Notes: generated from the sequence alone by a model not told the origin. DNA of 64,000 bases from Candidatus Eiseniibacteriota bacterium (GCA_942491735.1 CALOCN010000001.1:1030071-1094070), one strand, 5' to 3'. Positions 15,326 through 64,000 are shown, counted from the first letter of the stretch. Made by a program: numbers and translations.

Positions 15326-15333
15326 GCGGGGCG

Positions 15334-28385: not shown

Positions 28386-28513
28386 TCAGGCGGGTGCGAA
28401 GCGCCGCCTCCCGGATGGTGTGGAGGGCCCCTTGCCCGGTGGGATGGGCGCGGATTGCGAAACTGCTAGACTGCGAATGCCCCCCGTCACTCGACCCCGC
28501 CGCGGAGGACGCC

Positions 28514-30514: not shown

Positions 30515-32043
30515 CGTGATCGCACCACGCGTCCCACGGAGTGCCAGCCGGTGCCGGTGCGTGCAGCCAGCAGATACACGCCGGGCGGGACCGGGACGCC
30601 GTGCTCGTCGCGGCCGTCCCAGACGGATTCCCCGTTGCTCACCCGCAGGGTCGCCCGCAGACGGCCATGGATGTCGAACACGGAGAGGGAGCGTGTGTCG
30701 GAATCGAGCGCGCTCAGCACGGTGCGGGAGCGAAACGGGTTGGGATAGGCATGGACGAGGACCCGCGGGGTGACGGTCGAGGTGGCCGTCGATGGATCCT
30801 GGGCGGCGCGAAAGTAGATCTCCTCCTTGGTGTGCCGGGTGTCCTGCCACAGCACGAAGACGCGTCCGGCGCCGTCGGCGTGCAGGGTGGGCCGGGACGA
30901 CTTGCCCGAAACGCCGAAGCTGATCTGGGTGTCGCCGGCCCCGGTGGAGTCCCACCCGGCCCCCGCCGCAGCGCTCTGATAGAACACCTGCCGGTTGAAC
31001 ACCGACACCCGTCCATCCTGCCACGCCACATGGCGGCGGCCGGAGGGGTCCACGCTGATATCCGGCTCTTCCGCGCCCACGGCGGCGGGGGAGACGCGGG
31101 TCGGCGGGCCCCATACCCCGCCCGGGGTGCGCTCCCGCAGATAGACCGCCTTGGTTCCCTCCCGCGGATCGGCCCACACCGCGACCAGGGTGCCGTCCGG
31201 CGCCACATCCAGGGCGACCCCGTCCGCCGCGGCGCTGGGAGGGGAGAGGGTGTCGGGGGCCGACCATGCGTCTCCCGGGGGGCGGTGCCGATAGAGGATA
31301 CGGAACCCTCCGTTGGCGTTGTCCCGCCATGCCGCATGCAACGCTCCGTCCGGTCCGCTGGCCAGGGCGGGGAAATTGGAATCGCTGGGGTTCGCCGAGA
31401 CGTTCTCGTCCGGACCGTCACCCGGGGTCGTGTCCCAGGCTCCACCGGTTCGGCTCTTGAACAGGATTTCCGCGTTATCCCCGTCGTAGCGGAAGTCGTA
31501 CCAGGCCACATGCGCGGTGCCGTCCGGTGCAACGACCAGGTTCGGCAGGTATGAGTTGTCCCCGTCGGTCTCGGGATGCGCGGTCGTGGTGAGGCGGGTC
31601 TCGGTGGTGCTGTCCCCCCACGCCTCGCCGCCCGCGCGCACCTTGGTGAACAGCTCCAGGTTGTTGATGCCGGCAACCCGATAGTCGTGCCACACCATGA
31701 GCAGGGTGTCGCCCGGCAACGTGACCAGGGAGGGGAACTTCGCCCCCAGGCCTTCCCCGATGTAGGTCGCGTTGAACACCACCGCGGTCTCGTCCGGTCC
31801 CCAGACCCCGCCCAACTCCCGCGTGCGGGTGTTGATCTGGAAGTTGGAGTTGGGGCCGTCCTGTTCGGCCCATGCCGCGGTGAGTCGTCCCCACGAATCC
31901 ATGGCCAACGCGCCGTGATTCAGCCCGGTCTCGCTGACCGTCCCCTTCGTGGTGAGTCGTTCCTCCGGACCCCAATCCAGAGCCCGGGCCGGGCTGCCCA
32001 GGGCCATCCATGCCAGCGTGAGGAGGCAAACCCCGCGCCTCAT
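30511..32043 (-). CDS. secreted repeat protein (DG..HVAW.D repeats, probable beta-propeller) with C-terminal FlgD-Ig/T9SS-like domain
   Basis: Internal ATG at 32043 overlapping TonB-receptor stop (ATGA); signal peptide MRRGVCLLTLAWMALGSPARA; C-terminal YPNPFRS...VWDGRDEHGVPVPPGVYLL. Confidence 0.65.
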   Translation of the reverse strand: MRRGVCLLTLAWMALGSPARALDWGPEERLTTKGTVSETGLNHGALAMDSWGRLTAAWAEQDGPNSNFQINTRTRELGGVWGPDETAVVFNATYIGEGLGAKFPSLVTLPGDTLLMVWHDYRVAGINNLELFTKVRAGGEAWGDSTTETRLTTTAHPETDGDNSYLPNLVVAPDGTAHVAWYDFRYDGDNAEILFKSRTGGAWDTTPGDGPDENVSANPSDSNFPALASGPDGALHAAWRDNANGGFRILYRHRPPGDAWSAPDTLSPPSAAADGVALDVAPDGTLVAVWADPREGTKAVYLRERTPGGVWGPPTRVSPAAVGAEEPDISVDPSGRRHVAWQDGRVSVFNRQVFYQSAAAGAGWDSTGAGDTQISFGVSGKSSRPTLHADGAGRVFVLWQDTRHTKEEIYFRAAQDPSTATSTVTPRVLVHAYPNPFRSRTVLSALDSDTRSLSVFDIHGRLRATLRVSNGESVWDGRDEHGVPVPPGVYLLAARTGTGWHSVGRVVRSR

Positions 32044-34017: not shown

Positions 34018-35529
34018 TCAGCGAACGACCGCTACCCGGGTCACTGCGGTGTGGCTGCCGTCTGTCAGGTGAACGAAGTAGATGCCGTTGGCGAACGGGG
34101 TGGTGTCCAGGGCGAGGGCACCGTCGGCCACCCCGTCGCGGGACAGGAGCACCCGTCCGCGCACATCGACGAGACGCACCGTGGCCTTTCCCTGGATGCC
34201 GCGCAGGGCGAGCCGCAAGGCACCGCGGGAGGGGTTGTCCAGGGCGCGCGCCGCCAGCGGCAACGCGGCCACCGTGATCCGGCGCTCCCCCAGGGTCTCC
34301 AGTCCTCCGGTGCGAAGCCGGGCGACCAGACGGTAGGCCACCTCCCCGCGCACGGGGTCCTCGTCGCGCCAGGTACCCCTTTCCGCGGCAACGAGGTCCG
34401 CGACGGTTCGCCAGTCGGCTGCGCCCCCGCTGCGCTCGACCTGGATGCGGGAGGCTTCGTGGACGTCGCCCAGGGTCCAGTCGAGCCGGACTCCGGCCTC
34501 GGTGGCTTCCACCGAGAACGTGGTGAGCTGCACCGGCACCGGCTTGTCCTCATGGACGGCCAGACAGCCGGGACCGTCGCCGGTGGCATACGTGTCGATG
34601 ACCTGCTCATCGCTCAGGCGAAGCCGCACCAGGAGGTCGTCGGCGAACAGGGTGAAGAGGAGGTTGCCCATGCCGTCGAACGCGAGTCCGGTGTACCCGG
34701 TACCTCCGACCAGCAGAGCGTTGCCGGAATCCCGGATCACCGTGCGGGTATCGGCGTCGTAGGTGTAGAGCCCCCCGAAGTAGTCCGTGGTGACCGCGAG
34801 TCCGTCGCCGATGGCGATCTTGCCCGGGCTCCCTCCCAGGACCAGGGTGTCCTGCGGCGCGTGCGTGGCCCCGTCGATGACGTGCGCCTCCCCGAACACG
34901 GAGAAGTAGTTCCCGGTGCACATCACGTGGAGGTCGTTGTTCCAGGCGGCCAGCCACTGGGGGTTCATCCCCACCGCTAGGGTGTCGGTAATCGCGAGCG
35001 TACCCGGGTCCAGGGCGAACACCGTCCCCGGGTCGTAACCGAAGTCGCTGGGCCGGAACCCGGTGTTGGCCACATAGCAGACGCCGTTCAGGAGGAGCAC
35101 GTCTTCCGGTGAGCCGCCGACCCCCACCCGGCCGGTCTCGGTGCCGGTGGCGTCGAAGCGGACCAGTTCGTGGGTGTTGAGCAACGACACGTAGACGTTG
35201 CCCGCGTCGTCCACGTCGAGGGCGTAGGGGTTTGAGCCGGCTCCCGTGGAGAGGGTCTGCAACAGCGTGAGCGTGGCGGTGTCCAGGACCTCCACCGCGT
35301 CCGCGCCGGAGACCACCACGTAGAGCTTGCCCGCCTTCACCACCGCCTCGCTGGGAAACCCGGCGAAGGCGTGCGGTCCCAGTTGCACCGCGCCCGTGGT
35401 CAGGTCCGCGGTGGAGATCGTGTTGTCGATTCCGTTCATGACGAGGGCGGTCGGTGTGGCGTGAGCCACGGGGGATTGGACCCCGGGGGCGAGCAGAAGC
35501 AAGAAGCAGACAGCAATGAAGCGTGGCAC
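34018..35529 (-). CDS. secreted YVTN-type beta-propeller protein with C-terminal sorting-like domain
   Basis: GTG start at 35529; signal peptide MPRFIAVCFLLLLAPGVQSPVAHA; stop 1 nt before receptor start; C-terminal ...GIYFVHLTDG... Confidence 0.65.
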   Translation of the reverse strand: MPRFIAVCFLLLLAPGVQSPVAHATPTALVMNGIDNTISTADLTTGAVQLGPHAFAGFPSEAVVKAGKLYVVVSGADAVEVLDTATLTLLQTLSTGAGSNPYALDVDDAGNVYVSLLNTHELVRFDATGTETGRVGVGGSPEDVLLLNGVCYVANTGFRPSDFGYDPGTVFALDPGTLAITDTLAVGMNPQWLAAWNNDLHVMCTGNYFSVFGEAHVIDGATHAPQDTLVLGGSPGKIAIGDGLAVTTDYFGGLYTYDADTRTVIRDSGNALLVGGTGYTGLAFDGMGNLLFTLFADDLLVRLRLSDEQVIDTYATGDGPGCLAVHEDKPVPVQLTTFSVEATEAGVRLDWTLGDVHEASRIQVERSGGAADWRTVADLVAAERGTWRDEDPVRGEVAYRLVARLRTGGLETLGERRITVAALPLAARALDNPSRGALRLALRGIQGKATVRLVDVRGRVLLSRDGVADGALALDTTPFANGIYFVHLTDGSHTAVTRVAVVR

Positions 35530-39626: not shown

Positions 39627-41669
39627 CTACGGGATCAACACGAGCCGCTGGACCGATTGGAACCCTCCCGCGCGAAGCCGGTACAGGTAGACCCCCGCCG
39701 GTGCCTTGCGTCCCAGATCATCCACGCCGTTCCACCGCGCGGTATGCGAGCCCGCGCCCAGATTCGTGCGAACCAGTTCCCGCACCCGCCGCCCGGCCAG
39801 GTCGAACACCTCCAGGGTCGCCGGACCGCTCTCGGCCAGGGTGAACCCGATCGTCGTGCTGGAACGGAACGGGTTGGGTACCGCGGAGTGCAGGGTCACC
39901 GCGGGGGTGATTTCCGGGTCGGGCGCGGCGAGGGGAGTGGCCTGGTACCCGAAGTCCTGGTCGGTCAGGCTGCCCGAGCAATCGGCGGCCAGTTTCGCCT
40001 CGTCCGGGGTGAGGATCCCATCCGGGTCGTAGGTCGGGGCGGCACCGCTGGGAACGGTGGTGTTGTCCACCCGCACCGTGTAGCGCCCGGCGGCCAGACC
40101 GGAGAAGGCGTAGGCGCCGCTTCCCGTGGTCGTTGCCGTGTCCAGGACGGCAAGCGATTCATCCAGGAGTTCCACCGTGACTCCCGGGAGTCCCGGCTCC
40201 CCGCTGCGGGTCTGGTCGCCGTTCTGATCGTCCCAGACTACGCCGGCCACCGTGCCGTCCCTGCGCGTGAACTCCCAGCGATCGGTGCGGAAGGTGATGC
40301 TTGCCCCGCTGTTGCTGATGAGGGTCGCCACCACGTTGATCAGCTCCCCGTTGCCCCCGTTGGAAACGGCGAACGGATCCAGGATGTCGTTGCCACCCCA
40401 GAGGTACGAGTCGTCGTTCACGAAGTCGGCCAGGGGAATGGTGATCTTCTGCCAGCCTCCGCCGGCGACCAGGTCACCTCCCGTGGCCTTGACGGTGAGC
40501 GTCGTCTCGAACTCGTCGTCCGCGCTCGGGGAGATGTTCCCGTCCCCGTTGTCGTCCTCCTGGAGCTGGATGATCAGGTTGTAGTCCTGCCCCGCATCCG
40601 GCTCGACCCACAGGCTGAAGTGGGTCATGCCGGTGAGGTCGTGGTGATTCTCCCGGCCAAAGCCGCCGAAGTAGCCGGGGCTGCCCCCGGCTCCCCAACC
40701 CACGTCGATGGAGCCGGCGCAACCCTCTCCCGGGGCCGAGGTGGTGGTGTTCTGGCCGATTCCGCCGCCGCCGATCCCGTTGAAGGAGAACCAGCCGTCC
40801 CCGTTGGGATTCCCGTTGTCCCCACCCGCGAAGATGATCGAACACCCCTCGAACTCCGGTCGTTGGTAGACGCGAACGTAGTCCACCACCAGTTCCTGCG
40901 GGAACACCGTGGTCCCGTCGGGAGGCCCGGGCAGGTTGCCGCCCACCGCCATGTTGAGCAGGATGTGCATGTCATGGTTGAACGGCGCGGGGTACTCGCC
41001 GCCGGTGGAATACCAGGTCTGCTGGCACGCGTAGAGTTCACCATCCACGAACCAGCGAAGTTCGTTGGGGGACCACTCGAGGGCGAAGGTGTGGAAGGCA
41101 TCGTTGAAGGTGCCGCTGGGGAGAACGTAGTCGTTCCCCGAGTAGACGTTCCCGGGAAACGCGTCGCCGTAGTGGATGGTCCCGAACACCTCGTCCGGGT
41201 TCTGCCCCACGTACTCCATGATGTCGATCTCGCCGCCCGCCGCCCAGCCCCCGTAGTTGTTGTCGGTGAAGAGAAGCCAGAAGGCGGGCCAGATTCCCTG
41301 GCCGATCGGCAGCTTGGCCCGCATCTCGAATCGGCCGTAGGTGAAGCTCATCGTGTTGCGGGTGACGAGCCGGGCCGACGTGTAGTTCCTCCCGCCAATC
41401 GACTCCTGCTTGGCGGTGATGGTGAGGTGTCCACCGGCCACCGTGGCGTTCTGGCTGCGGTAGTACTGCAGTTCGTTGTTTCCCCAGCCGCACAGGCTCG
41501 GACACCCGGTTCCGAGGTCGAACCCCCATTTGGTGCCGTCGACGGAGCTTCCATTGAACTCGTCCGACCAGACCAACTCGTAGTCCTGGGAGAGGGCCAA
41601 GGCGGGGCATAGGCCCATAAGCCCGGCGCAAGCCAGGACGACGATCGCAGCGCGGTGACATGCACCCAT
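39627..41669 (-). CDS. glycoside hydrolase family 16 (beta-glucanase/laminarinase-like), multidomain, with C-terminal FlgD-Ig/T9SS-like domain
   Basis: Internal ATG 41669 with AGGAG about 10 nt upstream; signal peptide; GH16 catalytic motif GEIDIMEY (ExDxxE); Gly/Asp-rich middle; Cna-B-like segment; C-terminal VPNPFRS...WNGVDDLGRKAPAGVYLY. Confidence 0.8.
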   Translation of the reverse strand: MGACHRAAIVVLACAGLMGLCPALALSQDYELVWSDEFNGSSVDGTKWGFDLGTGCPSLCGWGNNELQYYRSQNATVAGGHLTITAKQESIGGRNYTSARLVTRNTMSFTYGRFEMRAKLPIGQGIWPAFWLLFTDNNYGGWAAGGEIDIMEYVGQNPDEVFGTIHYGDAFPGNVYSGNDYVLPSGTFNDAFHTFALEWSPNELRWFVDGELYACQQTWYSTGGEYPAPFNHDMHILLNMAVGGNLPGPPDGTTVFPQELVVDYVRVYQRPEFEGCSIIFAGGDNGNPNGDGWFSFNGIGGGGIGQNTTTSAPGEGCAGSIDVGWGAGGSPGYFGGFGRENHHDLTGMTHFSLWVEPDAGQDYNLIIQLQEDDNGDGNISPSADDEFETTLTVKATGGDLVAGGGWQKITIPLADFVNDDSYLWGGNDILDPFAVSNGGNGELINVVATLISNSGASITFRTDRWEFTRRDGTVAGVVWDDQNGDQTRSGEPGLPGVTVELLDESLAVLDTATTTGSGAYAFSGLAAGRYTVRVDNTTVPSGAAPTYDPDGILTPDEAKLAADCSGSLTDQDFGYQATPLAAPDPEITPAVTLHSAVPNPFRSSTTIGFTLAESGPATLEVFDLAGRRVRELVRTNLGAGSHTARWNGVDDLGRKAPAGVYLYRLRAGGFQSVQRLVLIP

Positions 41670-41777
41670 GAATGGGACTCCTGAGGTTGCGGTGGGCCTA
41701 CGAGCATACCACTTTGATCTCTTATCGAACAAAGTCTTTAGTCAACTGCAACCGGTTGCTGGATATGCGTTTGTGGC

Positions 41778-51802: not shown

Positions 51803-54800
51803 TCAGCGCACCCGCACCACGCGCCGCATCGCGGTCACGTCCGGGGTTTCCACCCGGACCAGATACACCCCGGCCGCCACAAGCGCCCCCTGCGTGTTAC
51901 GTCCATCCCAACGCAACTCGTGGGCTCCGCTTTTCAGCACGCCGTCCTTGAGCGATCGCACCAGTCGCCCGGACGCGTCGAACACCCGCACCCGCACCGG
52001 TCCCGCGGTCGCCATCTCGAACTGAAGTCGCGTGCCCAGTGAGAACGGGTTCGGGAACGCGGCCAGCGCCACCGGCGACACGACGGGCGTATCCGCGGCA
52101 AGGATGGGCTCGGCGGTGCGGAAGTGTCCCTGGTTGCGGCCGGCCACCCCGGGCCGGAACCAGCGCGTGGCGGGGAAGTAGGGCGACGGCGTTCGCAGCC
52201 GCCACTGCACGGAGTAGAGCGTGGATGGATTGAGCCCGGTGAGCTGGTTCAGGAGCTCCGTGGAGGAACCCAGGCTCCCCACCACCGGTCCGGTCTCGGC
52301 CCAGCCGCTGTACCAACTGATGCTGAGATCTCCCAGGTAGGGGTGGTCCGAGGTCGGATAGATCCACCACTCCTGCCGGATCCGGGTGCGCCCGGCCGGG
52401 CTCTGGGCACGCCCGGTATGGATCTGGATCTGATCCGGTAGGTCGGTCGTTCCCAGACGGGAAACCGGTTGCCCCCCACTGTTCCGGATCTGGGGCCGGT
52501 GTGGAGTCTGCCAGAACTGCGAGGTCCCTCCGCCGGGGTAGCTCCACACCCGCCCCCGCTGACTGATTCCTCCATTGAGGTAATCGACTGCGGACCCGGC
52601 CGGATCGCAGAAACCATCCCCGTTGAAGTCACCGGCCGCCACCGCCCAACCACCGTGCGCGCCCGCCTGGTTGGACCCCGACCACCACGCGCCAAACCCG
52701 CCCACCTCCATCACGCCCCACCGGCCTTCCGTGTTCTGGCCGTCGGTGTAGTAGGGCGCCCCCGCGACCAGGTCTCCCAGCCCGTCCGCGTTCACGTCCC
52801 CGGCGTCGGCCAACGCGAATCCCAGGTTGGCTCCGGTCTGGCCGCCCCACTCGGAGCGGCTGATGTTCTGGTATTCCAGCCGCACCATGCCTTCGTTGCT
52901 GAAGGTGCTGGTGGCCCACGGTGCTCCCATGGCCACGCCGTCCTCGTGGCCGTTGGGGGAGGCCACGGCGGCGAGCGCGTAGCCCAGCTGGATCCCGGTC
53001 GGGAACGGAGTCAACGACGACCCCTGCCATTCCCAGGTGGGGGTGGTCTCCGGTCCGGTGGGTCCGCCTCGGTACCCCCGCACCAGTCCCTCGTCATCCG
53101 CATTGTCGTCGAAGAGCGGGGCCGAGACGAACAGGTCGGTGTACCCGTCCCCATCCTTGTCGCAGGCCGTAACCGCGAAGCCGAACGCGCACCCGGAGTG
53201 CGGCCCGGTGACCGTCCATACCGGGGTGGCGGCCAGCCCGGTCGGCGACCCCAGGTAGCAGAACGCCGCGCCCAGGTTGCTCGACCCGTAGTCCTTCGCC
53301 CCGACGATCACATCGGCGTAGCCGTCTCCGTTGACGTCACCCGCCGAGGCCACCGCGTTCCCCACGAAATCCGAGACGCCCCCCACGGTGCTGAACCAGT
53401 TCGCCACGGCTCCCGGACCGGTGGCCGATCCGTGAAACAGGTACGCCCTCCCGGAGTTCGCACCACCTCCGTTGTCCCCGCGCGCCCCCACCAGCACGTC
53501 GTCGAACCCATCCCCGTTCACGTCTCCGGCGATGGCCACCGAGGAGCCGTGCCAGTCGTAGACCGCGTTCCCTTCATGGGTCCAGGGAGCGGGGAGGGTC
53601 GTGCTGAGCCCCAGGGACCCGCCATAGACCAGCTCCACCCGTCCCGCCTCCGTACCATGGATCCCGTCGTAGAACGGCGATCCCACCAGGAGATCCTCGT
53701 ACCCATCCCCGTTGACATCCCCCCCGCTCCCCAGGGACTGGCCGTATTGTTCGCCGGTCTGGTCCCCGAAGATGGCGAATCCGCCCGTGGTGGCCAGGCC
53801 CTCGGCCCCGCCCTTGAAGAGCCGGACCCGACCCGCGTTGATGTTGGCTCCATCGTCGTAGATGTATTCCGCTGCGAGGTATTCCGAGAACCCGTTTCCA
53901 TCGACGTCACCGGCGGTGGCCACGCAGTGACCCAGGGCCGCCCAGTCCTGGGTGCCGTTCAGGTACCAATCGAAGTTCGCGCCGATCCCCGTCGCCGATC
54001 CCGAGTAGCCCAGGATGCGCCCCGCGTTGGTGGCCCCGTACCAGGGGACGCCCACCATGAGATCGGCGTAGCCGTTCCCGTCCAGGTCGCCGGCCGGGGC
54101 GACCGAGAACCCGAACTGGTCGCCGCTCCCTCCGCTGAGGATACGGCTACCGGTGTTGGTGAGCCCCGTCGCCGTGCCGTAGCAGACGATGACCCGCCCG
54201 GCCTGGGTGGCCAGGGGGTAATCCGGAGCGCCGATGGCGGCGTCGGCATAGCCGTCCCGATTGACGTCGCCGGCCAACGAGACACAGTGACCGTAGCGTG
54301 CGTTGGCCGCGGGCCCGACCAGGGTCCAGGTGTCCAGGGCGTAGGTTCCGGTGGAGCTCCCCAGATACAATTGGACCTGGCCCGCCTCGGGCGAGGCAAG
54401 ACCGGGATTGTAGCCGGGGGATCCCACCAGCCAGTCGGAGTAGCCGTCGCCGTTGACGTCCCCGCAGGTCGACACGCTGTAGCCGAACTCGGAACCACTC
54501 GTGCCGCCTCCCACCCATCCGGTGCTGGTGGAGAGGCCGGTCGAGGAACCCAGGTGCAGATAGGCGCGACCCGGAGAGCCGAAGGTGGCTCCCCATTCCG
54601 GAGCGCCGATCAACACGTCGCAGTACCCATCCCCGTTGACGTCGCCCGCGGTGGCGACCGAGAACCCGGTCCTGGATTGGCTGCTCCCCACGCGCTCCCA
54701 ATCCGGGGTGGTGGAAAGCCCGGTCGCCGAACCCAGGTAGAGATAGGCGTACCCGCGGTTGGAGTCCGCGAACGGAGCCCCCACCAGGACGTCGTCGTAG

Positions 54801-55159
54801 CCGTCGCCGTTCACATCCCCGGCCGGGGCCACCGAGTAGCCGAACTGCGCTCCTGATCCACCGTGGGTCACGTCCCAATCCGGCGTTGCCCCGAGACCGG
54901 GGTAGGCATTGCCGTGGTAGACATACGCGCGGCCGTCCCCGTCCATGGGTGCCCCCACGATGACATCGGTGAACCCATCGCCGTTGACGTCACCGGCCGG
55001 AGCCACCGATTCGCCGAAGCGGCTCCACGCCGGGCCGGACTCGGACCAGCCGCCATAGGTGATGGCGGGGGTGGCGTCGACGACGTTCGGGGTGGTCTGC
55101 GCGGCGAGGATCAGAACGAGTAGAGCCCGGATGGCGGGCCGGCGGAAAACCGATCTCAT
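51803..55159 (-). CDS. large secreted FG-GAP/VCBS-repeat protein with C-terminal FlgD-Ig/T9SS-like domain
   Basis: 1118 aa; signal peptide; more than 12 repeats of AGDVNGDGY.D..VGAP; AGGAGG 6 nt upstream of ATG; C-terminal FPNPFS...RWDGRNTQGALVAAGVYLV. Confidence 0.8.
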   Translation of the reverse strand: MRSVFRRPAIRALLVLILAAQTTPNVVDATPAITYGGWSESGPAWSRFGESVAPAGDVNGDGFTDVIVGAPMDGDGRAYVYHGNAYPGLGATPDWDVTHGGSGAQFGYSVAPAGDVNGDGYDDVLVGAPFADSNRGYAYLYLGSATGLSTTPDWERVGSSQSRTGFSVATAGDVNGDGYCDVLIGAPEWGATFGSPGRAYLHLGSSTGLSTSTGWVGGGTSGSEFGYSVSTCGDVNGDGYSDWLVGSPGYNPGLASPEAGQVQLYLGSSTGTYALDTWTLVGPAANARYGHCVSLAGDVNRDGYADAAIGAPDYPLATQAGRVIVCYGTATGLTNTGSRILSGGSGDQFGFSVAPAGDLDGNGYADLMVGVPWYGATNAGRILGYSGSATGIGANFDWYLNGTQDWAALGHCVATAGDVDGNGFSEYLAAEYIYDDGANINAGRVRLFKGGAEGLATTGGFAIFGDQTGEQYGQSLGSGGDVNGDGYEDLLVGSPFYDGIHGTEAGRVELVYGGSLGLSTTLPAPWTHEGNAVYDWHGSSVAIAGDVNGDGFDDVLVGARGDNGGGANSGRAYLFHGSATGPGAVANWFSTVGGVSDFVGNAVASAGDVNGDGYADVIVGAKDYGSSNLGAAFCYLGSPTGLAATPVWTVTGPHSGCAFGFAVTACDKDGDGYTDLFVSAPLFDDNADDEGLVRGYRGGPTGPETTPTWEWQGSSLTPFPTGIQLGYALAAVASPNGHEDGVAMGAPWATSTFSNEGMVRLEYQNISRSEWGGQTGANLGFALADAGDVNADGLGDLVAGAPYYTDGQNTEGRWGVMEVGGFGAWWSGSNQAGAHGGWAVAAGDFNGDGFCDPAGSAVDYLNGGISQRGRVWSYPGGGTSQFWQTPHRPQIRNSGGQPVSRLGTTDLPDQIQIHTGRAQSPAGRTRIRQEWWIYPTSDHPYLGDLSISWYSGWAETGPVVGSLGSSTELLNQLTGLNPSTLYSVQWRLRTPSPYFPATRWFRPGVAGRNQGHFRTAEPILAADTPVVSPVALAAFPNPFSLGTRLQFEMATAGPVRVRVFDASGRLVRSLKDGVLKSGAHELRWDGRNTQGALVAAGVYLVRVETPDVTAMRRVVRVR

Positions 55160-55252: not shown

Positions 55253-57613
55253 CTAGGACTCCGGTCCCGCAAGTCCCCGATACCGTTCGGCTTCCGTGGG
55301 TTGATTCAGGGTTTCGTAGAGGTCGGCCAGCACGCCGGCGATCTTCCGGGTGTTGGGGTGCTCCGGTCCCGACAGGCCCACCATCGCGTCGTAGACCCCG
55401 GTAAGGATCGGCTCCGCCTCGGCCGGCCGTCCCAGATCGATCAGGGACAGAGCGAACGAGCCGCGGAAGCTCTGGGTGCGCACATCCGCGTCTCCCAGAA
55501 GGCTGTCGGCGATGGCCAGGGCCCGTTCGTGGAAGGGGATCGCTTCCGCCGGTCGATCCATGTTGTAGAGCTGCTTGGCCACCGCGTTGTATCCCATGGC
55601 GGTGCTGGAGTTGAGTTCTCCCAACACCCGGATCTTGTCCTTGAGGACCTGCTCGAACGTCTCCAGGGCCAGGGCCTGGTCCCCGTTGGCGTTGTAGAGA
55701 TAGGCCAGGTTGTTGTGCATGACCAGCACGTCGGGGTTGTCGGCGCCATAGAGAGCGATTCCCATTTCGCAGGCCGCCGCCATGAGCGGGGTGGCCTCGT
55801 CCAGCCGGTCCACCTGCCAGAGCAGGTTCCCCAGGGCGCCGGCCATGACGAAGGTGACCTCGCTCTGGTTCCCAAAGGACGCCCGTGCCCGGGCCAACGC
55901 GTCCTCGATGTGCGGGATGGCCTCCTCCAGACGTCCGTGCGCTTCCTCGAGCCCCCCCAGGAAATGCAGCGCATCGATGATCTCCACCCCGCGCGGATCC
56001 AGGCGGGGCATCACGCCCCGGATGCGTACCGCCATGGAGTCGGCCGAGTCCAGCCGCCCCGTGTCGATGAACACGTCTCCCAGGGACTCCAGGGGTGGGT
56101 AGAGCCGCGGATCCCCCGGCTCCAGGATCGCGTCGAGCCGGGCCAGGGCGTGGCGGAAGTGGTGCTCCGCGTCCTCGTACCGCCCCATGCCGCGATAGGT
56201 GTCTCCCAGGGACAGGTGGGCGCTGGCCGCGACTTCCGGCAGATCTCCCAGCTCGCGGTCGATCACCGAGGTCGCGTTGCCCAGGACATCCAGGACCCGG
56301 ACGTCCGGGCCCGACTCCCAGGGATCCGGGGATTCCAGCAGGGTGACCATGAACTCGCTCAGCACCCGGGACTTCTCGGCTTCCGTCTCGGCCCGGGCGC
56401 GTGCGTGCTCGGCGCGCGACCAGCCGGCCACCGAAACGATCAGCCCGGCCAGGAGCACGGCCACCCCGGCCGCCCCGGTGAGCACCACGCCCCGGTTGCG
56501 CTTGGCGAACTTGCGGAACTGGTACACCGTGCTGGGGGGACGGGCCAGGATGGGCTCGCTGTCCAGGAACCGTTGCAGGTCGGCGGCCAGTTCACCGGGG
56601 GATCCGTAGCGCTGTTCCTTGTCCTTCTCCAGGCACTTGCGAACAATGGTCTCGAGGTCCGAGGGAAACCGCTGTTCCCCGTCCCCCAGCGAACTCGGCT
56701 CGTCCTCCTCGATCACCCGTGCCGCCTCGATGAGGCTCTTCCCCTGCAGCGCCTGCGGCAGGCGATCGGTCAACACCTCATAGCACAACACACCGAGGGC
56801 ATAGACGTCGGACCGGGTGTCCAGTTCGTCCTGCTGCCCGCGCACCTGCTCGGGGCTCATGTAGGGGAGGGTGCCCACGACCTGTCCCGCGTCGGTGCGG
56901 AAGGTGGTGGCCCGGACATCGTCGTCGAGGTGGCGCGCCACCCCGAAGTCGAGAATCTTGGGTTGCCCGTCCGGGCGGACCAGGATGTTGGCCGGTTTCA
57001 GGTCGCGGTGGACAATGCCGTTCTGGTGCGCGTGGTTGACCCCTTCGCACACCCGGATCAGGAGCTCGATCCGGTCCTTCGTGGAGAGCTTCATCTCGCG
57101 GGCAAACTCGGTCAGGGGGAGCCCGTCGATCAACTCCATGACGAAGTAGGGTTGCTGCCCCAGGGCCGCTCCGGTGGTCCCCGCATCGTAGACCCTGGCG
57201 ATCCCCGGGTGATCCAGTTGTCCTAGAAGCTCGGCCTCCAACTCGAATCTTTGCAATGCTTTGCGTGATAGGGCATCCCCTCGAATCAGCTTGAGGGCGA
57301 CGTCCCGGGAAGGCTGTTCCTGATGGGCGCGAAAGACCACACCCATGCCCCCTCCGGCGATGATGCCCTCGAGGCGGTAGCTGCCGATGGTCTTCCCCAA
57401 CCAGGCGTCCTCGCCTCCGATCGAGGCGATGGCGGAACCGCCCAGGAACTCTCCCGCCCGGGCGCCCGCCTGGAGCAGGGAGATCACCTCGGACTCGAGC
57501 TCGGTGTCCTCGCCGCTCTGATCCCGGACGAACGCCAGCCGCTCTTCCTCCGGAAGCTCGATGGCCTGATCGAACAACTCGCTGGCCCGGGCGAAGAGGT
57601 CGCGGGACGTCAT
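55253..57613 (-). CDS. Ser/Thr protein kinase with C-terminal TPR-like region and one transmembrane segment
   Basis: Internal ATG 57613 overlapping sigma stop (ATGA); catalytic loop HRDLKPANIL, DFGVA, SPEQ; TM segment GVVLTGAAGVAVLLAGLIVSVAG. Confidence 0.85.
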   Translation of the reverse strand: MTSRDLFARASELFDQAIELPEEERLAFVRDQSGEDTELESEVISLLQAGARAGEFLGGSAIASIGGEDAWLGKTIGSYRLEGIIAGGGMGVVFRAHQEQPSRDVALKLIRGDALSRKALQRFELEAELLGQLDHPGIARVYDAGTTGAALGQQPYFVMELIDGLPLTEFAREMKLSTKDRIELLIRVCEGVNHAHQNGIVHRDLKPANILVRPDGQPKILDFGVARHLDDDVRATTFRTDAGQVVGTLPYMSPEQVRGQQDELDTRSDVYALGVLCYEVLTDRLPQALQGKSLIEAARVIEEDEPSSLGDGEQRFPSDLETIVRKCLEKDKEQRYGSPGELAADLQRFLDSEPILARPPSTVYQFRKFAKRNRGVVLTGAAGVAVLLAGLIVSVAGWSRAEHARARAETEAEKSRVLSEFMVTLLESPDPWESGPDVRVLDVLGNATSVIDRELGDLPEVAASAHLSLGDTYRGMGRYEDAEHHFRHALARLDAILEPGDPRLYPPLESLGDVFIDTGRLDSADSMAVRIRGVMPRLDPRGVEIIDALHFLGGLEEAHGRLEEAIPHIEDALARARASFGNQSEVTFVMAGALGNLLWQVDRLDEATPLMAAACEMGIALYGADNPDVLVMHNNLAYLYNANGDQALALETFEQVLKDKIRVLGELNSSTAMGYNAVAKQLYNMDRPAEAIPFHERALAIADSLLGDADVRTQSFRGSFALSLIDLGRPAEAEPILTGVYDAMVGLSGPEHPNTRKIAGVLADLYETLNQPTEAERYRGLAGPES

Positions 57614-58170
57614 GCCTCGGGGCTCTCCGCGTTGAGTTCCCGGAAGAGCCAGGCGCGAGCGAAGGCCCACCGTCGGCGGACCGTGCGCACCCCGATGTCC
57701 AGCAGCTCGGCGATCTCCGTTTCCTTGAGTCCGGCGAAGTACTTGAGTTCCACGATGCGGCAGTCCTGGGGCGAACGATCGGCTAGGCGCTCCATGGCCT
57801 GGTTGAGCTCCAGCAGGTCGAAGTCCCGGTCCCCGGTGGTGATGTCGCTGAGGGTCACCCGGACCATCCCACCGCCCCGCTTGCGGCTGTTGTGCGCCCG
57901 GGCGTGATCCACCAGCACCCGCCGAATCTGCTGGGCGGCCACGCACATGAAGTGCCCCCGGTTCTGCCACCCCACCTGCTGTTGTGCCAGTCGCAGGTAC
58001 ACCTCGTGCACCAACGCCGTGGGCTGCAGGGTGTGGCTGCCCCGTTCATGCGCCATGTGATAGGCGGCCAGGGCGCGTAGCTCCTGGTAGACGACATCCA
58101 CCACCGAGTCGGTGCCGCTCAGGCTGGGGTCGGAAGGGGGGCCGGGCTCATTCGGGGTGTGTCGGGTCAT
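57610..58170 (-). CDS. ECF-type sigma factor of the Ser/Thr-kinase-associated class
   Basis: 186 aa; sigma-4-like HTH LKETEIAELLDIGVRTVRRRWAFAR; gene order sigma then kinase with 4-bp overlap. Confidence 0.7.
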   Translation of the reverse strand: MTRHTPNEPGPPSDPSLSGTDSVVDVVYQELRALAAYHMAHERGSHTLQPTALVHEVYLRLAQQQVGWQNRGHFMCVAAQQIRRVLVDHARAHNSRKRGGGMVRVTLSDITTGDRDFDLLELNQAMERLADRSPQDCRIVELKYFAGLKETEIAELLDIGVRTVRRRWAFARAWLFRELNAESPEA

Positions 58171-58536: not shown

Positions 58537-61500
58537 ATGCGTGTCGCCGTATTTGCGACCTTGCTGCTGCTCGTCCTCACCCCCCTCGCCTTGGCCGCCC
58601 CACAACCGGGTCATCCCGATGGCGGCGAGGCCATTCCCGTTCTCCAGGTCGACCGGGGCGGGCCGCTGGCTCCCTCCGGGCCCACCGACATCATGAACCT
58701 GGATACCGGCAACACCTACGCCACCATCGCCGCGGCCCTTGCGGACCCACTCACCCTCGACGGGCATACCCTCGAGGTCCAGGTGGCCAGCCACGGCGAA
58801 GGGAGCGTCCTCGTCGACAAGAGCGTGACCCTGCAGGGACAGACCGGAACCGAGTCCGTCCTGGCCACCAGCAACACCTCCAGCAGCGGCGACGCGCGGG
58901 GATGGTTCCTGGTCACCGCGCCCAACGTCACCGTGCGCGACCTCAACTTCGACGGGGATGGGTTCCTGATCTGGCAGGGCTTCCGGGTCAAGTCGACCGG
59001 GACCGGGATCACCTTCGACGACTGCACCTTCAACGACATCCGGTTCCAGGCCTCGGGGTCCCCGTACGCCGGCAACGCGATCGTCTCCATCGACGCGGAG
59101 ATGGCGGTGACCGACTGCGACTTCTCCCTGATCGGCCGGCACGGCATCTTCTTCTTTGGCGCCGGGGTCACCGCGGGCGTGGCCAGCGGCAACACCTATA
59201 CCGGCAAGGGTGCCGGGGACTGGCTGGACTACGGGGTCGAGATCGGTGGGGGAGCGGTGGTGACGCTCACCGACAACACCATCACCGCCTGCACCGGCGT
59301 GGCCCTCTCCGACGGATCCACGTCGGCCGGCGTCCTGGCCAGCACCTTTTTCGGGGCGGGCACGACGGCCAACGCCACCGGTAACTTTCTCAACGCCAAT
59401 ACCACCGGGTTCTTCGCGGGCTACGATGCTTCGGACGTCACCGTGACCGCGATCAGCGACAACGACCTGTCCGGCAACACGGACTTCGGCATGGTCGCCA
59501 CCTCGACCACGGTGACCGCGGACGCCTCCGCCAACTGGTGGGGCAGCAACGTGGCCGCCTCGGTCTCCGCCGCCATCTCCGGCGACGTGGACTACACCCC
59601 CTGGCTGGACGTCGGCACCGACACCGGGGGCCCCGGGTTCGAGGGGGACTTCGCCGTTCTCCATGTGGACGACGACAGCCCGCAGACCGGAGCCACCGGC
59701 CGGATCCAGGAGGGGGTCGACCTCGTCACCGCGAGCACGGTCCTCGTTGAGCCGGGTACGTATGTGGAGCAGGTCATCGTGGATGGGATGGACGTGGAAA
59801 TCGTCGGTTCCGGCGACGGGGTCACCCTCGTCCATGCCCCGGCCAGCCTGGCCACGACCTTCACGACATCCGGGCCCAACAAGCCGGTCATCTCGGCCAT
59901 GAACACCGACTCGGTGATCATCCGCGACCTGACCGTGGACGGATTGGGCGTCGGAAACGCCAACAACCGGATCATGGGAGTCGGTTTCTGGAACGCCGGC
60001 GGCGCCCTGCTGGATGCCACGGTGCAGAACGTGATCGACACCCCGTTCTCCGGGGTCCAGCACGGGATCGGTATCCTGGCCGCCAACAACACGGGAGGTC
60101 CCTACGCCCTGGAGGTGGGGAACGTCGTCATCCAGGAATACCAGAAGAACGGAACCGCCTTCACCGGCGGCGGGCTGACCGTGGACATGCACGACTGCAC
60201 CGTGATCGGCAAGGGAGCCACCACGACCATCGCCCAGAACGGAATCCAGTTCAGTGGCGGCGCCGGGGGCGCGATCACCAACTGCGACGTTTCGGACATG
60301 GACTACACCCCGGACAGCTACGTCTCCAGCGGGATCCTCTGCATCGGCGCGACCCCGGTCGACATTTCCGGGGGCTCGGTCACCGACGTGCAGGAGTCGC
60401 TGTACTACATCGACACCGACGGGGCGATCGGTGACCTGACCGTCACCGGCGGGAGTGAGCCCTACGACGCGTTCTTCATCTACAACACTTCCACCAGCGC
60501 CGCGCTGAATCCGCTCGCCGCCGGCTCCCAGAAACCGGTCGCCTCCCCGTTCACGGTGGGCGGCGGCTCCGGCGCCGGCGCCGGGTCCGCCTCGGCCCCC
60601 AGCGCGGTCATGACGGTGACCATCGACCAGAGCTGCTTCACCGATCCCATTCCCGGGCCCGCCAACACGGGGATCTTCGCCTGGACCGACGGCGGTCCCC
60701 TGGACGTGACCGTCACCAACACGCGTGTTTCCGGGTACGACGGCGGAATGCGCACGGCCGGCGGGGCGGTGCTCACCGCGACCAACAACCACATCAGCGG
60801 CAACACCACCTCCGGATACGACAACACCGGCAGCGGCAACGCCCAGGTGGCGACGCTGAACTACTGGGGAGCCAACGACGGCCCGTCAGGGGACGGCCCC
60901 GGCAGCGGCAACGCCGTGCTGAGCGTGGGCGGCGAGGTAGACTTCTCGTCGTGGCGTACGGACGGGGCCTCCACCACCGCCTGTGCCTTCAACCCGGTCT
61001 CCGGCAACTCCGTGGATCCCGTTCCGGACGTGGACTGCGTGTCCACCGCGAATCCCTGTGTCGACGTCGACTTCGAGATCACCCGGGCCGACGCCATCGA
61101 CATGCGCGGGTTCAGCCTCACCTTCCAGTTGAGTCCGGAGCTGGAGCTCTGCAACGGTCTGGCCAGCATCACCGAGGGCACGTACCTCAACGCGATCGGG
61201 GGGACCAATTTCCAGGTCCTGGACAACGGTGGGGGGTCCTACACCGTGGACGCCGCGATCCTGGGGCTGCCCTGCGGCGCCACCGCGGCCACCGGGACCC
61301 TGTTCTCCATCGAGGTCACCAACACGGGTGGGGACGGCACCGGCACCATCACCGTGACCGGTCTCATCCTGCGTGACTGCGTGAACGTGGACATTCCGGG
61401 GATCGCCGGGTCGACCACCCTGCAGATCGACAACACCGCGGTGAGCGCGATCACGGATCTGGCCGCCGCCCAGCAGCTCACCGGAAACGACGGGGACGGG

Positions 61501-62742
61501 ACCACGGTCATCGACCTGTCCTGGACCGCTCCCGCCGAACCGGATGCCTACCAGACCCAGATCTGGCGGAAGGGCTTCGGGTTCTATCCCGAGTACGACG
61601 ACCTGGGGGGATCGGCGCCGACCGCTCCCGCCAACCCGGTCGACGCCCTCTCCCAGGGGTGGACCCTGGTCGCCACCCTTCCCGCCTCCTCCTCGAGCCA
61701 GGCGGACGAGACCGCGCTCGAGCGGGACTTCATGTACTTTGTCGCATTCGTCTCGGACAGCTGCGGCAACATCAGCGGTGTGTCCAACGTTACCGACGGG
61801 ACGCTGAACTATCACCTCGGGGATGTGGTGCCGGTGACTCCGCCTCCGTTCGGGGACAACCTGGTCGACGTGCTCGACATTTCCAAGCTTGGGGCGCACT
61901 ACGGCACCAGCGACGGGGACGCTCTCTATCTGGATACCCTGGACGTCGGTCCCACCTCCACCAACTTCGTGGATGGTCTTCCCGACACCGACGACAGCAT
62001 CCAGTTCGAGGACCTGATCCTCTTCGCCATCAACTTCGGTCAGGTCTCCAAGCCGGCGCCGCCGGTGGACGGCGAGGATCTCCTTGTGGTCCGTGTACCG
62101 GAACTCCCCGCGGCGGGGGACCTGGTGGTGTCGCTCGACATGACGGCCAGCGGACGCATCCAGGGTCTGAGCATTCCCCTGGGCTGGGACCCGGCGGTGG
62201 TCAAGCCGGTGAGCCTGGTTGGCGGGGAACTCCTGGACCGGCAGACCGGGGTCGGGGTGGCCCTTGCCCCCTCGCCCGGGACCGTCGACGTGGCGGTGTT
62301 CGGCTCCGCCCTGTCGGGGACGGGGACCGTGGCCCAGGTGCGTTTCGAGGTTCTCGGGGCCGGTGACCCGGGCATCAGCCTGGGCGAGGTGACCGCCCGG
62401 GATGGCAGGAACCAACCGGTGGAGTTGGTGGGTTCGGTTGAGGGGGACCGCCGGGTCGTCCCGGTTGCCACCCGGTTCCTGGGGGCGAGCCCGAATCCCT
62501 TCCGCGCGGCCACCCGGGTGAACTTCACCCTGGCGCAGGAGACGCCGGTCGTGGCGCGCATCCATTCGGTGGACGGTCGCCTGGTTCGCACCCTGTTCGA
62601 GGGTTCCCTCGGTGCGGGTGAGCGTTCGGTGAGCTGGAACGGGCTCGACGCCAACGGTCGGCCGGCGGCCGCCGGGGTCTACGTCCTCCAGTTCCGGGCC
62701 GGGACCCTGCAGGAAAGTCGACGGATCGTCCGTCTACGCTGA
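58537..62742 (+). CDS. giant secreted protein: parallel beta-helix repeats, cohesin-like modules, dockerin-like segment, C-terminal FlgD-Ig/T9SS-like domain
   Basis: Internal ATG 58537 with AGGAGG 6 nt upstream; signal peptide MRVAVFATLLLLVLTPLALA; Gly/Thr/Asn-rich beta-helix-like repeats; dockerin-like GDNLVDVLDISKL...DTDDSIQFEDLILFAINFG; C-terminal SPNPFRA...WNGLDANGRPAAAGVYVL. Confidence 0.7.
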   Translation: MRVAVFATLLLLVLTPLALAAPQPGHPDGGEAIPVLQVDRGGPLAPSGPTDIMNLDTGNTYATIAAALADPLTLDGHTLEVQVASHGEGSVLVDKSVTLQGQTGTESVLATSNTSSSGDARGWFLVTAPNVTVRDLNFDGDGFLIWQGFRVKSTGTGITFDDCTFNDIRFQASGSPYAGNAIVSIDAEMAVTDCDFSLIGRHGIFFFGAGVTAGVASGNTYTGKGAGDWLDYGVEIGGGAVVTLTDNTITACTGVALSDGSTSAGVLASTFFGAGTTANATGNFLNANTTGFFAGYDASDVTVTAISDNDLSGNTDFGMVATSTTVTADASANWWGSNVAASVSAAISGDVDYTPWLDVGTDTGGPGFEGDFAVLHVDDDSPQTGATGRIQEGVDLVTASTVLVEPGTYVEQVIVDGMDVEIVGSGDGVTLVHAPASLATTFTTSGPNKPVISAMNTDSVIIRDLTVDGLGVGNANNRIMGVGFWNAGGALLDATVQNVIDTPFSGVQHGIGILAANNTGGPYALEVGNVVIQEYQKNGTAFTGGGLTVDMHDCTVIGKGATTTIAQNGIQFSGGAGGAITNCDVSDMDYTPDSYVSSGILCIGATPVDISGGSVTDVQESLYYIDTDGAIGDLTVTGGSEPYDAFFIYNTSTSAALNPLAAGSQKPVASPFTVGGGSGAGAGSASAPSAVMTVTIDQSCFTDPIPGPANTGIFAWTDGGPLDVTVTNTRVSGYDGGMRTAGGAVLTATNNHISGNTTSGYDNTGSGNAQVATLNYWGANDGPSGDGPGSGNAVLSVGGEVDFSSWRTDGASTTACAFNPVSGNSVDPVPDVDCVSTANPCVDVDFEITRADAIDMRGFSLTFQLSPELELCNGLASITEGTYLNAIGGTNFQVLDNGGGSYTVDAAILGLPCGATAATGTLFSIEVTNTGGDGTGTITVTGLILRDCVNVDIPGIAGSTTLQIDNTAVSAITDLAAAQQLTGNDGDGTTVIDLSWTAPAEPDAYQTQIWRKGFGFYPEYDDLGGSAPTAPANPVDALSQGWTLVATLPASSSSQADETALERDFMYFVAFVSDSCGNISGVSNVTDGTLNYHLGDVVPVTPPPFGDNLVDVLDISKLGAHYGTSDGDALYLDTLDVGPTSTNFVDGLPDTDDSIQFEDLILFAINFGQVSKPAPPVDGEDLLVVRVPELPAAGDLVVSLDMTASGRIQGLSIPLGWDPAVVKPVSLVGGELLDRQTGVGVALAPSPGTVDVAVFGSALSGTGTVAQVRFEVLGAGDPGISLGEVTARDGRNQPVELVGSVEGDRRVVPVATRFLGASPNPFRAATRVNFTLAQETPVVARIHSVDGRLVRTLFEGSLGAGERSVSWNGLDANGRPAAAGVYVLQFRAGTLQESRRIVRLR

Positions 62743-62832
62743 GTGGACTCGTCGGGGGATCCGTTCCGGCCTGCCCGGATCGGGCGGGTCCCCCGGCCGT
62801 CCACGTTTTTGGGGGGAGGTGCCTGGAGGTTC

Positions 62833-63696
62833 ATGAACGCCGCAACACGATTTCTTCGAAAGTCCAGGTTCCTGCTCTGCCTGTTGTTCTGGGGGCTCGT
62901 CTTTGTCATTGGTGTCGCTCGCGCCGAAGGCAACGGCGTTGCCCTTCTCCTGGAGGCCGAGTCGTCCTGTGCCTGCCAGTCCGGGCAGGTCGTGCAGGTG
63001 GCGCCGCTCCAGGTCTTCGATCTCGAGGTCCGCGTCCCCGCACCATCGGACAGCTTCAATGCCTACGAGGTAACCCTTGTCTTCGACCCCGCCCATCTCC
63101 TGTTTCAGCAACTCGCACCCCTTTCGCTGCAGGAAGGGGCGCTCATGACCACGGCGTGCCCCAGCCGGTTCCACGTGTTCAGCGAGACCTCCGGGACCAT
63201 CGAGTTGACCCACTCCCTCCTGTGCGCGGGGGTCCGGGTTGCCGGGGAGGGCACGGTCTATCGTCTGCGGTTCCAGGCTGCGGACCACGCCTCGATCAGC
63301 ACCGTCGAGTTCACCTCGGCCCGTGTCGTCGACGCGGGGATCCCGCTGGGACCGATCACCACCACCGGTGTGGAGGTACGGGTCGGGGACGTTTCCGCCG
63401 CCCCGTCTCCACCACCGGGACCTCTGCTTGAGGGCCCGATGCCGAATCCGACCCGGGGGGCGGCGGGATTTTCCGTGCGCTTTCCCCGTCCCACCCGGGT
63501 TGTGTTCGGTATCTACGACTCCAGGGGGCGACGTGTGTCCCTGGTCTATGAGGGCGCCGTGGACTCCGGCTCGCGAACCTTCCGCTGGAACGGACGGGAT
63601 CGGCTTGGGCGGGACGTCCCTCCCGGGGTGTACTACGCCCGCCTGGATACGCAGGACGGGACCCTGTCCCGGCGTCTGGTTCGACTCTCACGCTGA
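62833..63696 (+). CDS. secreted cohesin-like domain protein with C-terminal FlgD-Ig/T9SS-like domain
   Basis: Internal ATG 62833 with GGAGG upstream; signal peptide; C-terminal MPNPTRG...RWNGRDRLGRDVPPGVYYA. Confidence 0.6.
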   Translation: MNAATRFLRKSRFLLCLLFWGLVFVIGVARAEGNGVALLLEAESSCACQSGQVVQVAPLQVFDLEVRVPAPSDSFNAYEVTLVFDPAHLLFQQLAPLSLQEGALMTTACPSRFHVFSETSGTIELTHSLLCAGVRVAGEGTVYRLRFQAADHASISTVEFTSARVVDAGIPLGPITTTGVEVRVGDVSAAPSPPPGPLLEGPMPNPTRGAAGFSVRFPRPTRVVFGIYDSRGRRVSLVYEGAVDSGSRTFRWNGRDRLGRDVPPGVYYARLDTQDGTLSRRLVRLSR

Positions 63697-63720
63697 CTGC
63701 GGATGCGAAAGGACGACACC

Positions 63721-64000
63721 ATGAGCGCTCGGCATCGCGGCTCTTCCCTGGCCGGCACCTTCCTGCTCCTGCTCCTCTGCGGGATCCCGGTGGCTTCCGT
63801 GGCCAACCTGGCCTTCGAATGCGATCCGCCCATCTGCGAGGTGGTGTTCGGAGACAGTCTGGACGTCTACGTGACCGTCGATGGGACGGTGACCGATCTG
63901 CGCGGCTTCTCGGTGGTCATCGGGTTCGACCCCTCGGTGGTCACGCCGCTCTCCATCAACCCCGGTGCCCTCATCGACGGGTCGTGCGCCTGGTACATGC
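63721..64000 (+). CDS. secreted cohesin-like protein, 5' partial (continues beyond window)
   Basis: ATG 63721; signal peptide MSARHRGSSLAGTFLLLLLCGIPVASVA; resembles N-terminus of the preceding protein. Confidence 0.45.
   Translation, partial: MSARHRGSSLAGTFLLLLLCGIPVASVANLAFECDPPICEVVFGDSLDVYVTVDGTVTDLRGFSVVIGFDPSVVTPLSINPGALIDGSCAWYM

Follow-up and report, generated by a model that had tools for sequence, protein, structure and literature searches.

The DNA analysed here (the window) is a stretch of 64,000 nt from Candidatus Eiseniibacteriota (GCA_942491735.1 CALOCN010000001.1:1030071-1094070), with a G+C content of about 68%; all positions are counted from its first letter. The final part of the window encodes, on the plus strand, a predicted secreted protein of 1401 amino acids (gene 1) and two small cohesin-like proteins with signal peptides (genes 2 and 3). 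The C-terminal ~580 residues of gene 1 were found to be a fixed cassette of five modules, that is, a divergent cohesin-like domain (Coh1), an X module, a dockerin-like module (Doc), a second cohesin (Coh2) and a C-terminal sorting domain (CTD) of the kind associated with the type IX secretion system (T9SS). This cassette belongs to a very large family, occurs in a recurrent operon and has affinities with the type II X-dockerin anchoring pair. It is proposed, tentatively and as a reading that may well prove wrong, that the three genes constitute a cell-surface operon in which the X-dockerin-like unit of gene 1 docks in trans into the cohesin of a small protein.

Gene 1 occupies 58537..62742 (+), beginning with an ATG at 58537 that is preceded by an AGGAGG ribosome-binding site and closing with a stop at 62740-62742. 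The open reading frame (ORF) was supported by matches in both Pfam and NCBIfam, and the same protein is present in the public protein collection (P0226, on a 1.38-Mb contig). Its modules run in the order signal peptide, beta-helix passenger, Coh1, X, Doc, Coh2, CTD. The signal peptide (58537..58596 (+), MRVAVFATLLLLVLTPLALA) is visible in the sequence, with a probable cleavage site before the residues AP, and is followed by a passenger of ~800 residues (58597..60996 (+)). Pfam Beta_helix matched the passenger across three stretches (E = 1.1e-11), which identified right-handed beta-helix repeats and bore out the original prediction, made from the sequence alone, of a 1401-residue beta-helix protein. 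No solved relative of the passenger was found by sequence, and Pfam provided only the generic Beta_helix model. The passenger is not a recognised carbohydrate-active enzyme, whereas enzymes of that kind are the cargo of cellulosomes. Homologous N-termini were present on cassette genes in ~50 related ORFs.

The extent of the cassette became apparent when residues 820-1320 of gene 1 were used as a query: over 160 proteins matched, with identities of 40-60% and 95-99% of the query covered. These relatives were 600-870 residues long with N-termini that were mutually unrelated; those with a named source came mostly from metagenome-assembled genomes (MAGs) of Candidatus Eisenbacteria or Krumholzibacteriota, and many carried precomputed PF00963 and PF13860 annotations. 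Family hidden Markov models (HMMs) were built for the five segments of the cassette alignment (A1). The complete order Coh1-X-Doc-Coh2-CTD was found in 191 of 265 collected family proteins, while the remainder were mostly fragments; the order was nearly invariant and the X module directly preceded the dockerin-like module in every case. In 90% of the collected proteins the dockerin-like segment ended 200-270 residues before the C-terminus (median 236). Searching with the dockerin-like profile alone yielded 1116 representatives of clusters formed at 50% identity, and for 669 the E-value was 1e-10 or lower; no dockerin-only class was seen among the best 150 representatives of the family. Among species-representative genomes, 428 stretches encoded a relative, of which the best 76 were mostly from Eisenbacteria or Krumholzibacteriota MAGs, often with several genes per genome, in tandem. 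The setting is outside the Firmicutes, as had been predicted, and the relatives belong mainly to these two groups. The passengers ranged from ~0 to 1876 residues, and other family members possessed LamG, Big-like or NHL-type N-termini. Mean pairwise identity was 48% for Coh1, 52% for X, 57% for Doc, 35% for Coh2 and 38% for the CTD, such that Coh1, X and Doc were the most conserved modules of the cassette.

Two variations on the arrangement of cassettes were observed. In a protein of 2234 residues (P0138, on a 2.85-Mb contig) the unit X-Doc-Coh2 occurred four times before a single CTD; the gaps of ~125 residues between units could hold divergent Coh1 modules. At several loci (L003/L005, L015, L030, L034, L040 and L068), two to four cassette genes with differing passengers stood in tandem on one strand, and several such arrays finished with a small cohesin gene.

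The X module (61423..61806 (+), residues 963-1090) is an FN3/Ig-like beta-sandwich. The dockerin-like module that follows (61807..62052 (+), residues 1091-1172) comprises two loop-helix repeats, which were identified by hhalign, by internal repetition and by the helices of a model made with AlphaFold2 (AF2). When scanned alone, neither segment had a Pfam match even at E <= 10, and support for dockerin kinship was drawn entirely from profile-profile comparison. Real dockerin sequences for this purpose were taken from the PDB search output. The 32-member dockerin-like profile aligned with three type II dockerins over both repeats (hhalign 85%, or 79% in a local rerun; E = 6e-6 to 1.6e-5), and with an alignment of type I and type II dockerins at 87-90%. 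True type I dockerins, compared with true type II dockerins in the same set-up as a positive control, scored 92%, while reversed references and 30 column-shuffled references gave 4% or less and the other cassette domains 0.13% or less. Kinship with type I dockerins was considered and ruled out, as the comparison with type I alone returned only 1.8%. On the basis of its sequence profile, the module was judged to be a divergent dockerin with type II affinities, and one that falls outside the present definition of Pfam Dockerin_1.

The module also showed the internal duplication of a dockerin. Alignment of one half with the other, over 22 columns (hhalign 64%, E = 7e-5), revealed the duplicated loop and helix of ~22 residues by which dockerins are recognised. 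In the family alignment (A2), the first repeat reads LGDV ... GDNxVxTxDISxLGAxYG and the second LDVGPT ... TTDNxIxFEDLIxFAINYG. Conserved Asp, Asn and hydrophobic residues fall at EF-loop positions 1, 5, 6, 8 and 12; the residues of the putative calcium loops would be D1096, D1107, N1108, V1110 and D1114 in loop 1, and D1136, D1152, D1153, I1155 and D1159 in loop 2. Helices were predicted by AF2 at residues 1112-1121 and 1157-1166, starting near the presumed loop positions 10-11. Between presumed positions 3 and 5 there are insertions of ~7 residues in loop 1 and ~12 residues in loop 2; in the solved type II dockerins 4wi0_B and 5k39_B, loop 1 is likewise interrupted there, by 4 residues. The original prediction of a dockerin-like double EF-hand-type segment was thus upheld for the duplicated loop-helix pair, but not for the loops, which are not of the canonical 12-residue type. 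The predicted local distance difference test (pLDDT) score exceeded 90 for this region within the cassette model, against 64 for the module alone, which means that the module folds with confidence only when its neighbours are present. In type II complexes, an X-dockerin dyad is expected to need its neighbouring domain for folding.

A pair of cysteine columns, 1104 and 1134, was also noted in the dockerin-like module. Both were cysteine in 33 of 78 sequences and one alone in none (r = 1.0), and this perfect covariation suggests an optional disulfide from the loop-1 insertion to the inter-repeat linker in part of the family. The window protein has Pro and Thr at these columns.

The two cohesin-like segments that had been predicted for gene 1 proved to be real. 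Coh1 (61042..61422 (+), residues 836-962) was detected by its family HMM (E = 9e-56), and its family profile aligned with that of Coh2 (hhalign 96.8%), although the segment scanned alone had no Pfam match even at E <= 10. Five cysteines of Coh1 (834, 841, 872, 913 and 948) and one of X (1076) were 83-97% conserved in the family alignment. Coh2 (62062..62451 (+), residues 1176-1305), which is preceded by a Pro-rich linker, scored 24.1 bits against PF00963 when scanned alone; this is exactly the gathering score of that model (24.1 bits). The search with PF00963 that had been proposed along with the prediction thus placed Coh2 right at the cutoff, gave nothing for Coh1, and left genes 2 and 3 below the threshold. 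The A1 profile matched PDB cohesins over the Coh2 region, while phmmer with the cassette found no match among PDB sequences. A model of residues 820-1401 (582 residues), produced by AF2 from the family alignment, had a pLDDT of 94.1 and a predicted template modelling score (pTM) of 0.80; its only weak blocks were the Pro-rich linker between Doc and Coh2 (pLDDT 65) and the linker between Coh2 and the CTD. When this model was compared with the PDB by Foldseek, cohesins were returned, including the Clostridium perfringens cohesin-FN3 pair 2w1n (E = 8e-11) and the non-cellulosomal cohesin of Archaeoglobus fulgidus, and the predicted fold was a nine-stranded jelly-roll that could be superposed on solved cohesins. 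The Coh-X-DocII structure 3kcp_A aligned with 190 residues of the whole-cassette model, which is longer than one cohesin. Taken by profile, the four cohesin classes of the locus (Coh1, Coh2, gene 2 and gene 3) were mutually related (hhalign 93-99%), and Coh2, the gene-2 class and the gene-3 class matched one another at 99% or more.

Gene 1 ends in a sorting domain (62476..62739 (+)) of the FlgD_ig or T9SS type A kind. Its last 80 residues scored 26.5 bits against TIGR04183 in NCBIfam, where the cutoff is 23, and were matched as FlgD_ig by Pfam; thus, a type A CTD model (TIGR04183 or PF18962, and also PF13860, FlgD_ig) matched at the extreme C-terminus, in combination with the CTD fold. At least eight proteins in the window end in a FlgD_ig or T9SS-type sorting domain (11436-13871(+), 28370-29446(+), 30514-32520(-), 34021-35529(-), 39630-41732(-), 51806-55159(-), 58537-62742(+) and 62833-63696(+)), among them a GH16 glycosidase with an SdrD_B domain, an 11-repeat FG-GAP protein, and Reg_prop and BNR-like proteins. 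With so many in 64 kb, the tag appears to serve widely for export in this genome. Such domains are known from T9SS type A cargo (for instance, the CTD of Tannerella forsythia mirolase, 8QB1, and PorU, 6ZA2), but the phylum concerned here lies outside the Bacteroidota. No PorV, PorU, SprA or GldKLMN turned up in the scanned part of the 64-kb window.

The two genes downstream were predicted to encode small cohesin-like proteins and this was confirmed, since both matched the HMM of cassette Coh2 (gene 2, E = 4.5e-5; gene 3, E = 3.4e-13). Gene 2 (62833..63696 (+), 287 residues) consists of a signal peptide, a single cohesin (residues 60-167) and a T9SS-type CTD (residues 204-283) that scored 28.9 bits against FlgD_ig and 26.2 bits against TIGR04183. 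Its Pfam Cohesin match was below threshold (E = 0.013, 16.1 bits), and PF00963 was carried by 7 of 16 other gene 2 homologues. Gene 2 has a 100%-identical counterpart (P0121), through which a Logan contig (L001) was located; on this contig gene 3, cut by the end of the window (63721..64000 (+)), is complete at 1133-1681 with 182 residues. Gene 3 has a signal peptide, one cohesin-like domain, no sorting domain and a short tail ending ...TTWGAVKARRAP. It was identified by the Coh2 HMM, by Pfam and by its family profile; the Pfam Cohesin match was again below threshold (E = 0.0013-0.0015, 19.1-19.4 bits), while a homologue on another contig (L057) scored 26.2 bits. The best matches of the gene-3 family profile were type II cohesins, led by 3l8q_A (E = 9.6e-12) and followed by 2y3n, 1tyj, 4u3s and 5g5d (~1e-5) and SdbA (2b59_A, 1.4e-3); the type I cohesin 1aoh ranked later (E = 2.3e-3). 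By sequence, therefore, the gene-3 family is closest to type II cohesins. Across the related loci, the separate cohesin proteins had one cohesin each, and rarely two.

Most proteins of the gene-3 type end in a tail of the form (S/T)WGx(V/I/L)KxxYR, immediately before the stop (25 of 35 small cohesin ORFs in loci L002-L077), although the tail is degenerate in gene 3 of the window. The same tail was seen on unrelated secreted proteins, including one in the window (25383-26021 (+), ending ...VEPTTWGQVKDLYR) and others at L029:7272-7952(-) and L037:8188-9267. It is covered by no Pfam or NCBIfam model, and may be an undescribed sorting or anchoring signal.

Linkage of the cassette to small cohesin genes was recurrent. 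In 56 of 78 sources, a cohesin-only ORF (~180-240 residues), a cohesin-CTD ORF (~300 residues) or both adjoined the cassette gene. The usual position was immediately downstream in the same orientation, and a distance of 4 nt from the cassette stop was frequent. For 95 cassette genes, the available sequence extended at least 1.3 kb further downstream; here the next same-strand gene was a small cohesin in 43 cases, another cassette in 21 and neither in 31. Cassette genes with a beta-helix homologous to that of gene 1 showed the association most often (~35 of 51 among those listed). A scan of L001 for promoters and terminators yielded nothing useful for the operon boundaries, and a small gene resembling an outer-membrane protein that follows gene 3 (L001:1798-2268) was not conserved beside the operon in related loci.

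The closest known system is the type II pair that anchors clostridial cellulosomes, in which the X-DocII of CipA docks into SdbA. The cassette resembles this pair (CipA X-DocII with SdbA, OlpB or Orf2p; 2B59, 3KCP, 5K39 and 4WI0) in having an Ig/FN3-like X module directly before the dockerin, in the alignment of its dockerin-like profile over both repeats with a loop-1 insertion at the same site, in the nearness of the gene-3 cohesin family to type II cohesins, and in its putative partners, each a small protein that combines a single cohesin with a cell-envelope targeting element. It differs in that the host is a diderm lineage of the FCB (Fibrobacterota-Chlorobiota-Bacteroidota) group; targeting would be by a T9SS-type CTD or the WGxVKxxYR tail instead of S-layer homology (SLH) repeats; both calcium loops bear insertions (~7 and ~12 residues) and go unrecognised by Pfam Dockerin_1; the dockerin-bearing chain has a sorting domain and two cohesins in addition; and a multi-cohesin scaffoldin is lacking. 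The cassette plausibly functions in the manner of the type II anchoring pair.

Non-cellulosomal cohesin and dockerin modules reportedly occur in all domains of life, according to a survey by Peer et al. in 2009. Among modules of this kind, those of A. fulgidus (cohesin 2XDH) and of C. perfringens GH84C (cohesin-FN3, 2W1N) provide precedents for a cohesin followed by FN3, for cohesin and dockerin on one polypeptide, and for a setting outside plant cell-wall degradation. Unlike them, the modules described here form a fixed five-domain cassette with more than 1000 protein clusters, found mainly in two candidate phyla and in a recurrent operon with single-cohesin genes. A cellulosome-like complex with cohesin and dockerin domains, a T9SS-type CTD and surface attachment has been proposed for Ca. 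Stygibacter, a member of the Cloacimonadota, in which the enzymes have a C-terminal dockerin and a single 3755-residue scaffoldin bears tandem cohesins and carbohydrate-binding modules (PMC8542988). The host there is likewise of the FCB group and the domains are shared, including the CTD, but that complex keeps the classical division of labour, whereas every protein in the present family is itself Coh-X-Doc-Coh and the separate cohesin proteins are small, with single cohesins. Having no tandem-cohesin scaffoldin and no dockerin-only enzymes, the cassette system fails the system-level definition of a cellulosome. No paper was found that ties Eisenbacteria, Eiseniibacteriota, Krumholzibacteriota or FlgD Ig-like domains to cohesin or dockerin, and the library that was searched contained no description of the fixed Coh-X-Doc-Coh-CTD cassette, of its size and phylum concentration, of a dockerin with expanded loops or of linked single-cohesin genes.

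In the proposed mechanism, the X module and the dockerin-like module would together be a divergent relative of the type II X-dockerin dyad, by which clostridial scaffoldins are attached to anchoring cohesins on the cell. All three proteins would be exported, those with a CTD presumably through T9SS, and the small cohesin proteins would be held at the cell surface, gene 2 through its CTD and the gene 3 family through the C-terminal tail. The X-dockerin-like unit of gene 1 would then dock non-covalently, and probably in a calcium-dependent manner, into the cohesin of a small protein. Paralogues with other passengers would dock likewise, and in this way each passenger would be held on the surface. 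The original prediction had envisaged a self-assembling scaffold; this found no support, as there is no multi-cohesin scaffoldin and each dockerin-bearing protein carries two cohesins of its own.

Several observations weigh against docking in trans. Gene 1 already carries a sorting domain and a pair of cohesins, and thus has no evident need of a further anchor. Roughly one cassette gene in three is followed by neither a small cohesin gene nor another cassette gene, and the gene-2 family profile matched solved cohesins weakly, with its best match being a type III cohesin (ScaE, E = 3.7e-3). The putative calcium loops do not follow the canonical contiguous 12-residue pattern, D-x-[DN]-x-[DN]-G-x-[IV]-x-x-x-D, and have Asn in place of Gly at position 6. 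A search with PF00404, which had been proposed with the original prediction, gave no match: none of 32 family members matched Pfam Dockerin (PF00404) or EF-hand at E <= 10, and the dockerin-like family profile had no match among PDB sequences at the same limit. The dockerin reference alignments were small, with 3-5 sequences, while the module modelled alone (pLDDT 64) had no Foldseek match, a result that is uninformative rather than negative. Lastly, the pTM of 0.80 suggests that the modelled cassette domains pack against each other, which would fit binding within a single chain.

This last point leads to a different interpretation, in which the dockerin-like module is permanently packed on X and on a cohesin of its own chain, probably Coh1, the cassette is a rigid spacer or stalk separating the passenger from the sorting domain, and the small cohesin proteins have another role. 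We consider this rather unlikely, though it deserves to be taken seriously. A pTM of 0.80 over five domains and 582 residues implies confident mutual placement; the dockerin-like module reaches a pLDDT above 90 in context against 64 alone; conservation is highest in Coh1, X and Doc, which have no low-confidence linkers between them; and the module order is nearly invariant. However, X-dockerin dyads are generally known to need X for stability and yet bind cohesins in trans (e.g., 2B59), and a closed structure would leave the recurrent, co-encoded single-cohesin genes unexplained. Alternatively, the dockerin-like module may bind Coh1 or Coh2 of another cassette protein, so that paralogues polymerise into a mixed surface layer without any scaffoldin, with the small single-cohesin proteins serving to anchor the layer at the surface or to terminate the chains. 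It is a distinctly improbable arrangement that each cassette protein is thus both plug and socket, in a head-to-tail layer rooted on single-cohesin proteins that would be fixed to the outer membrane by a T9SS-type domain or by the putative WGxVKxxYR signal. It would nonetheless suit the 191 complete family proteins, each with two cohesins and one dockerin-like module, the lack of a dockerin-only class among the best 150 representatives, the several paralogues per genome, often in tandem and with passengers of ~0 to 1876 residues, the near invariance of the dockerin helices across paralogues, and the four X-Doc-Coh2 repeats of P0138. In cellulosomes, however, dockerins are not known to bind cohesins of their own polypeptide type.

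It is similarly doubtful that the modules do not pair at all, with the beta-sandwiches binding some other ligand, such as a glycan or envelope components, and the loop-helix repeats serving as a calcium-stabilised structural element. The failure of Pfam Dockerin to match and the interruption of the calcium loops would agree with this, and many non-cellulosomal cohesin-like and dockerin-like modules are reportedly without a demonstrated partner (Peer et al. 2009). But the profile similarity was specific to type II dockerins and its controls were clean, the gene-3 family has type II cohesin affinities, and the dockerin-like protein is genetically linked to single cohesins.

Cohesin-dockerin pairing is the textbook case of programmable extracellular assembly, and has been studied almost entirely in the cellulosomes of Firmicutes. 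Here, in candidate phyla that are uncultured, a divergent type-II-like X-dockerin and four related classes of cohesin are brought together around one fixed cassette and fused to T9SS-type sorting domains. If the modules do pair, they would show by what means bacteria that abound in soil and sediment arrange the proteins of their surface, and the type II anchoring principle would extend to diderm bacteria. Pairing would also provide new, sequence-distant cohesin-dockerin pairs for protein engineering, and would mean that current family models overlook a whole branch of dockerins.

Upstream of gene 1, on the opposite strand, are genes for an extracytoplasmic function (ECF) sigma factor (57613-58170 (-), PF07638), a Ser/Thr kinase and an FG-GAP protein, as had been described. 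The kinase contains TPR repeats, and the FG-GAP protein bears a FlgD_ig/T9SS-type sorting domain. The functional link suggested between these genes and the cassette was rejected as incidental, since in the 76 related loci the 6 kb around the cassette contained no homologue of any of the three. The longest ORF of the kinase (55256-57970 (-)) overlaps the sigma factor gene by ~360 nt; the real start of the kinase is probably just after the sigma factor stop, giving a sigma-kinase pair. Elsewhere in the window there is a run of envelope-glycan genes (9457-19435 (+)), comprising a GT2/sugar-transferase fusion, a PMT_2-like glycosyltransferase and a Polysacc_synt flippase, and a TonB-dependent receptor (32043-34016 (-)).

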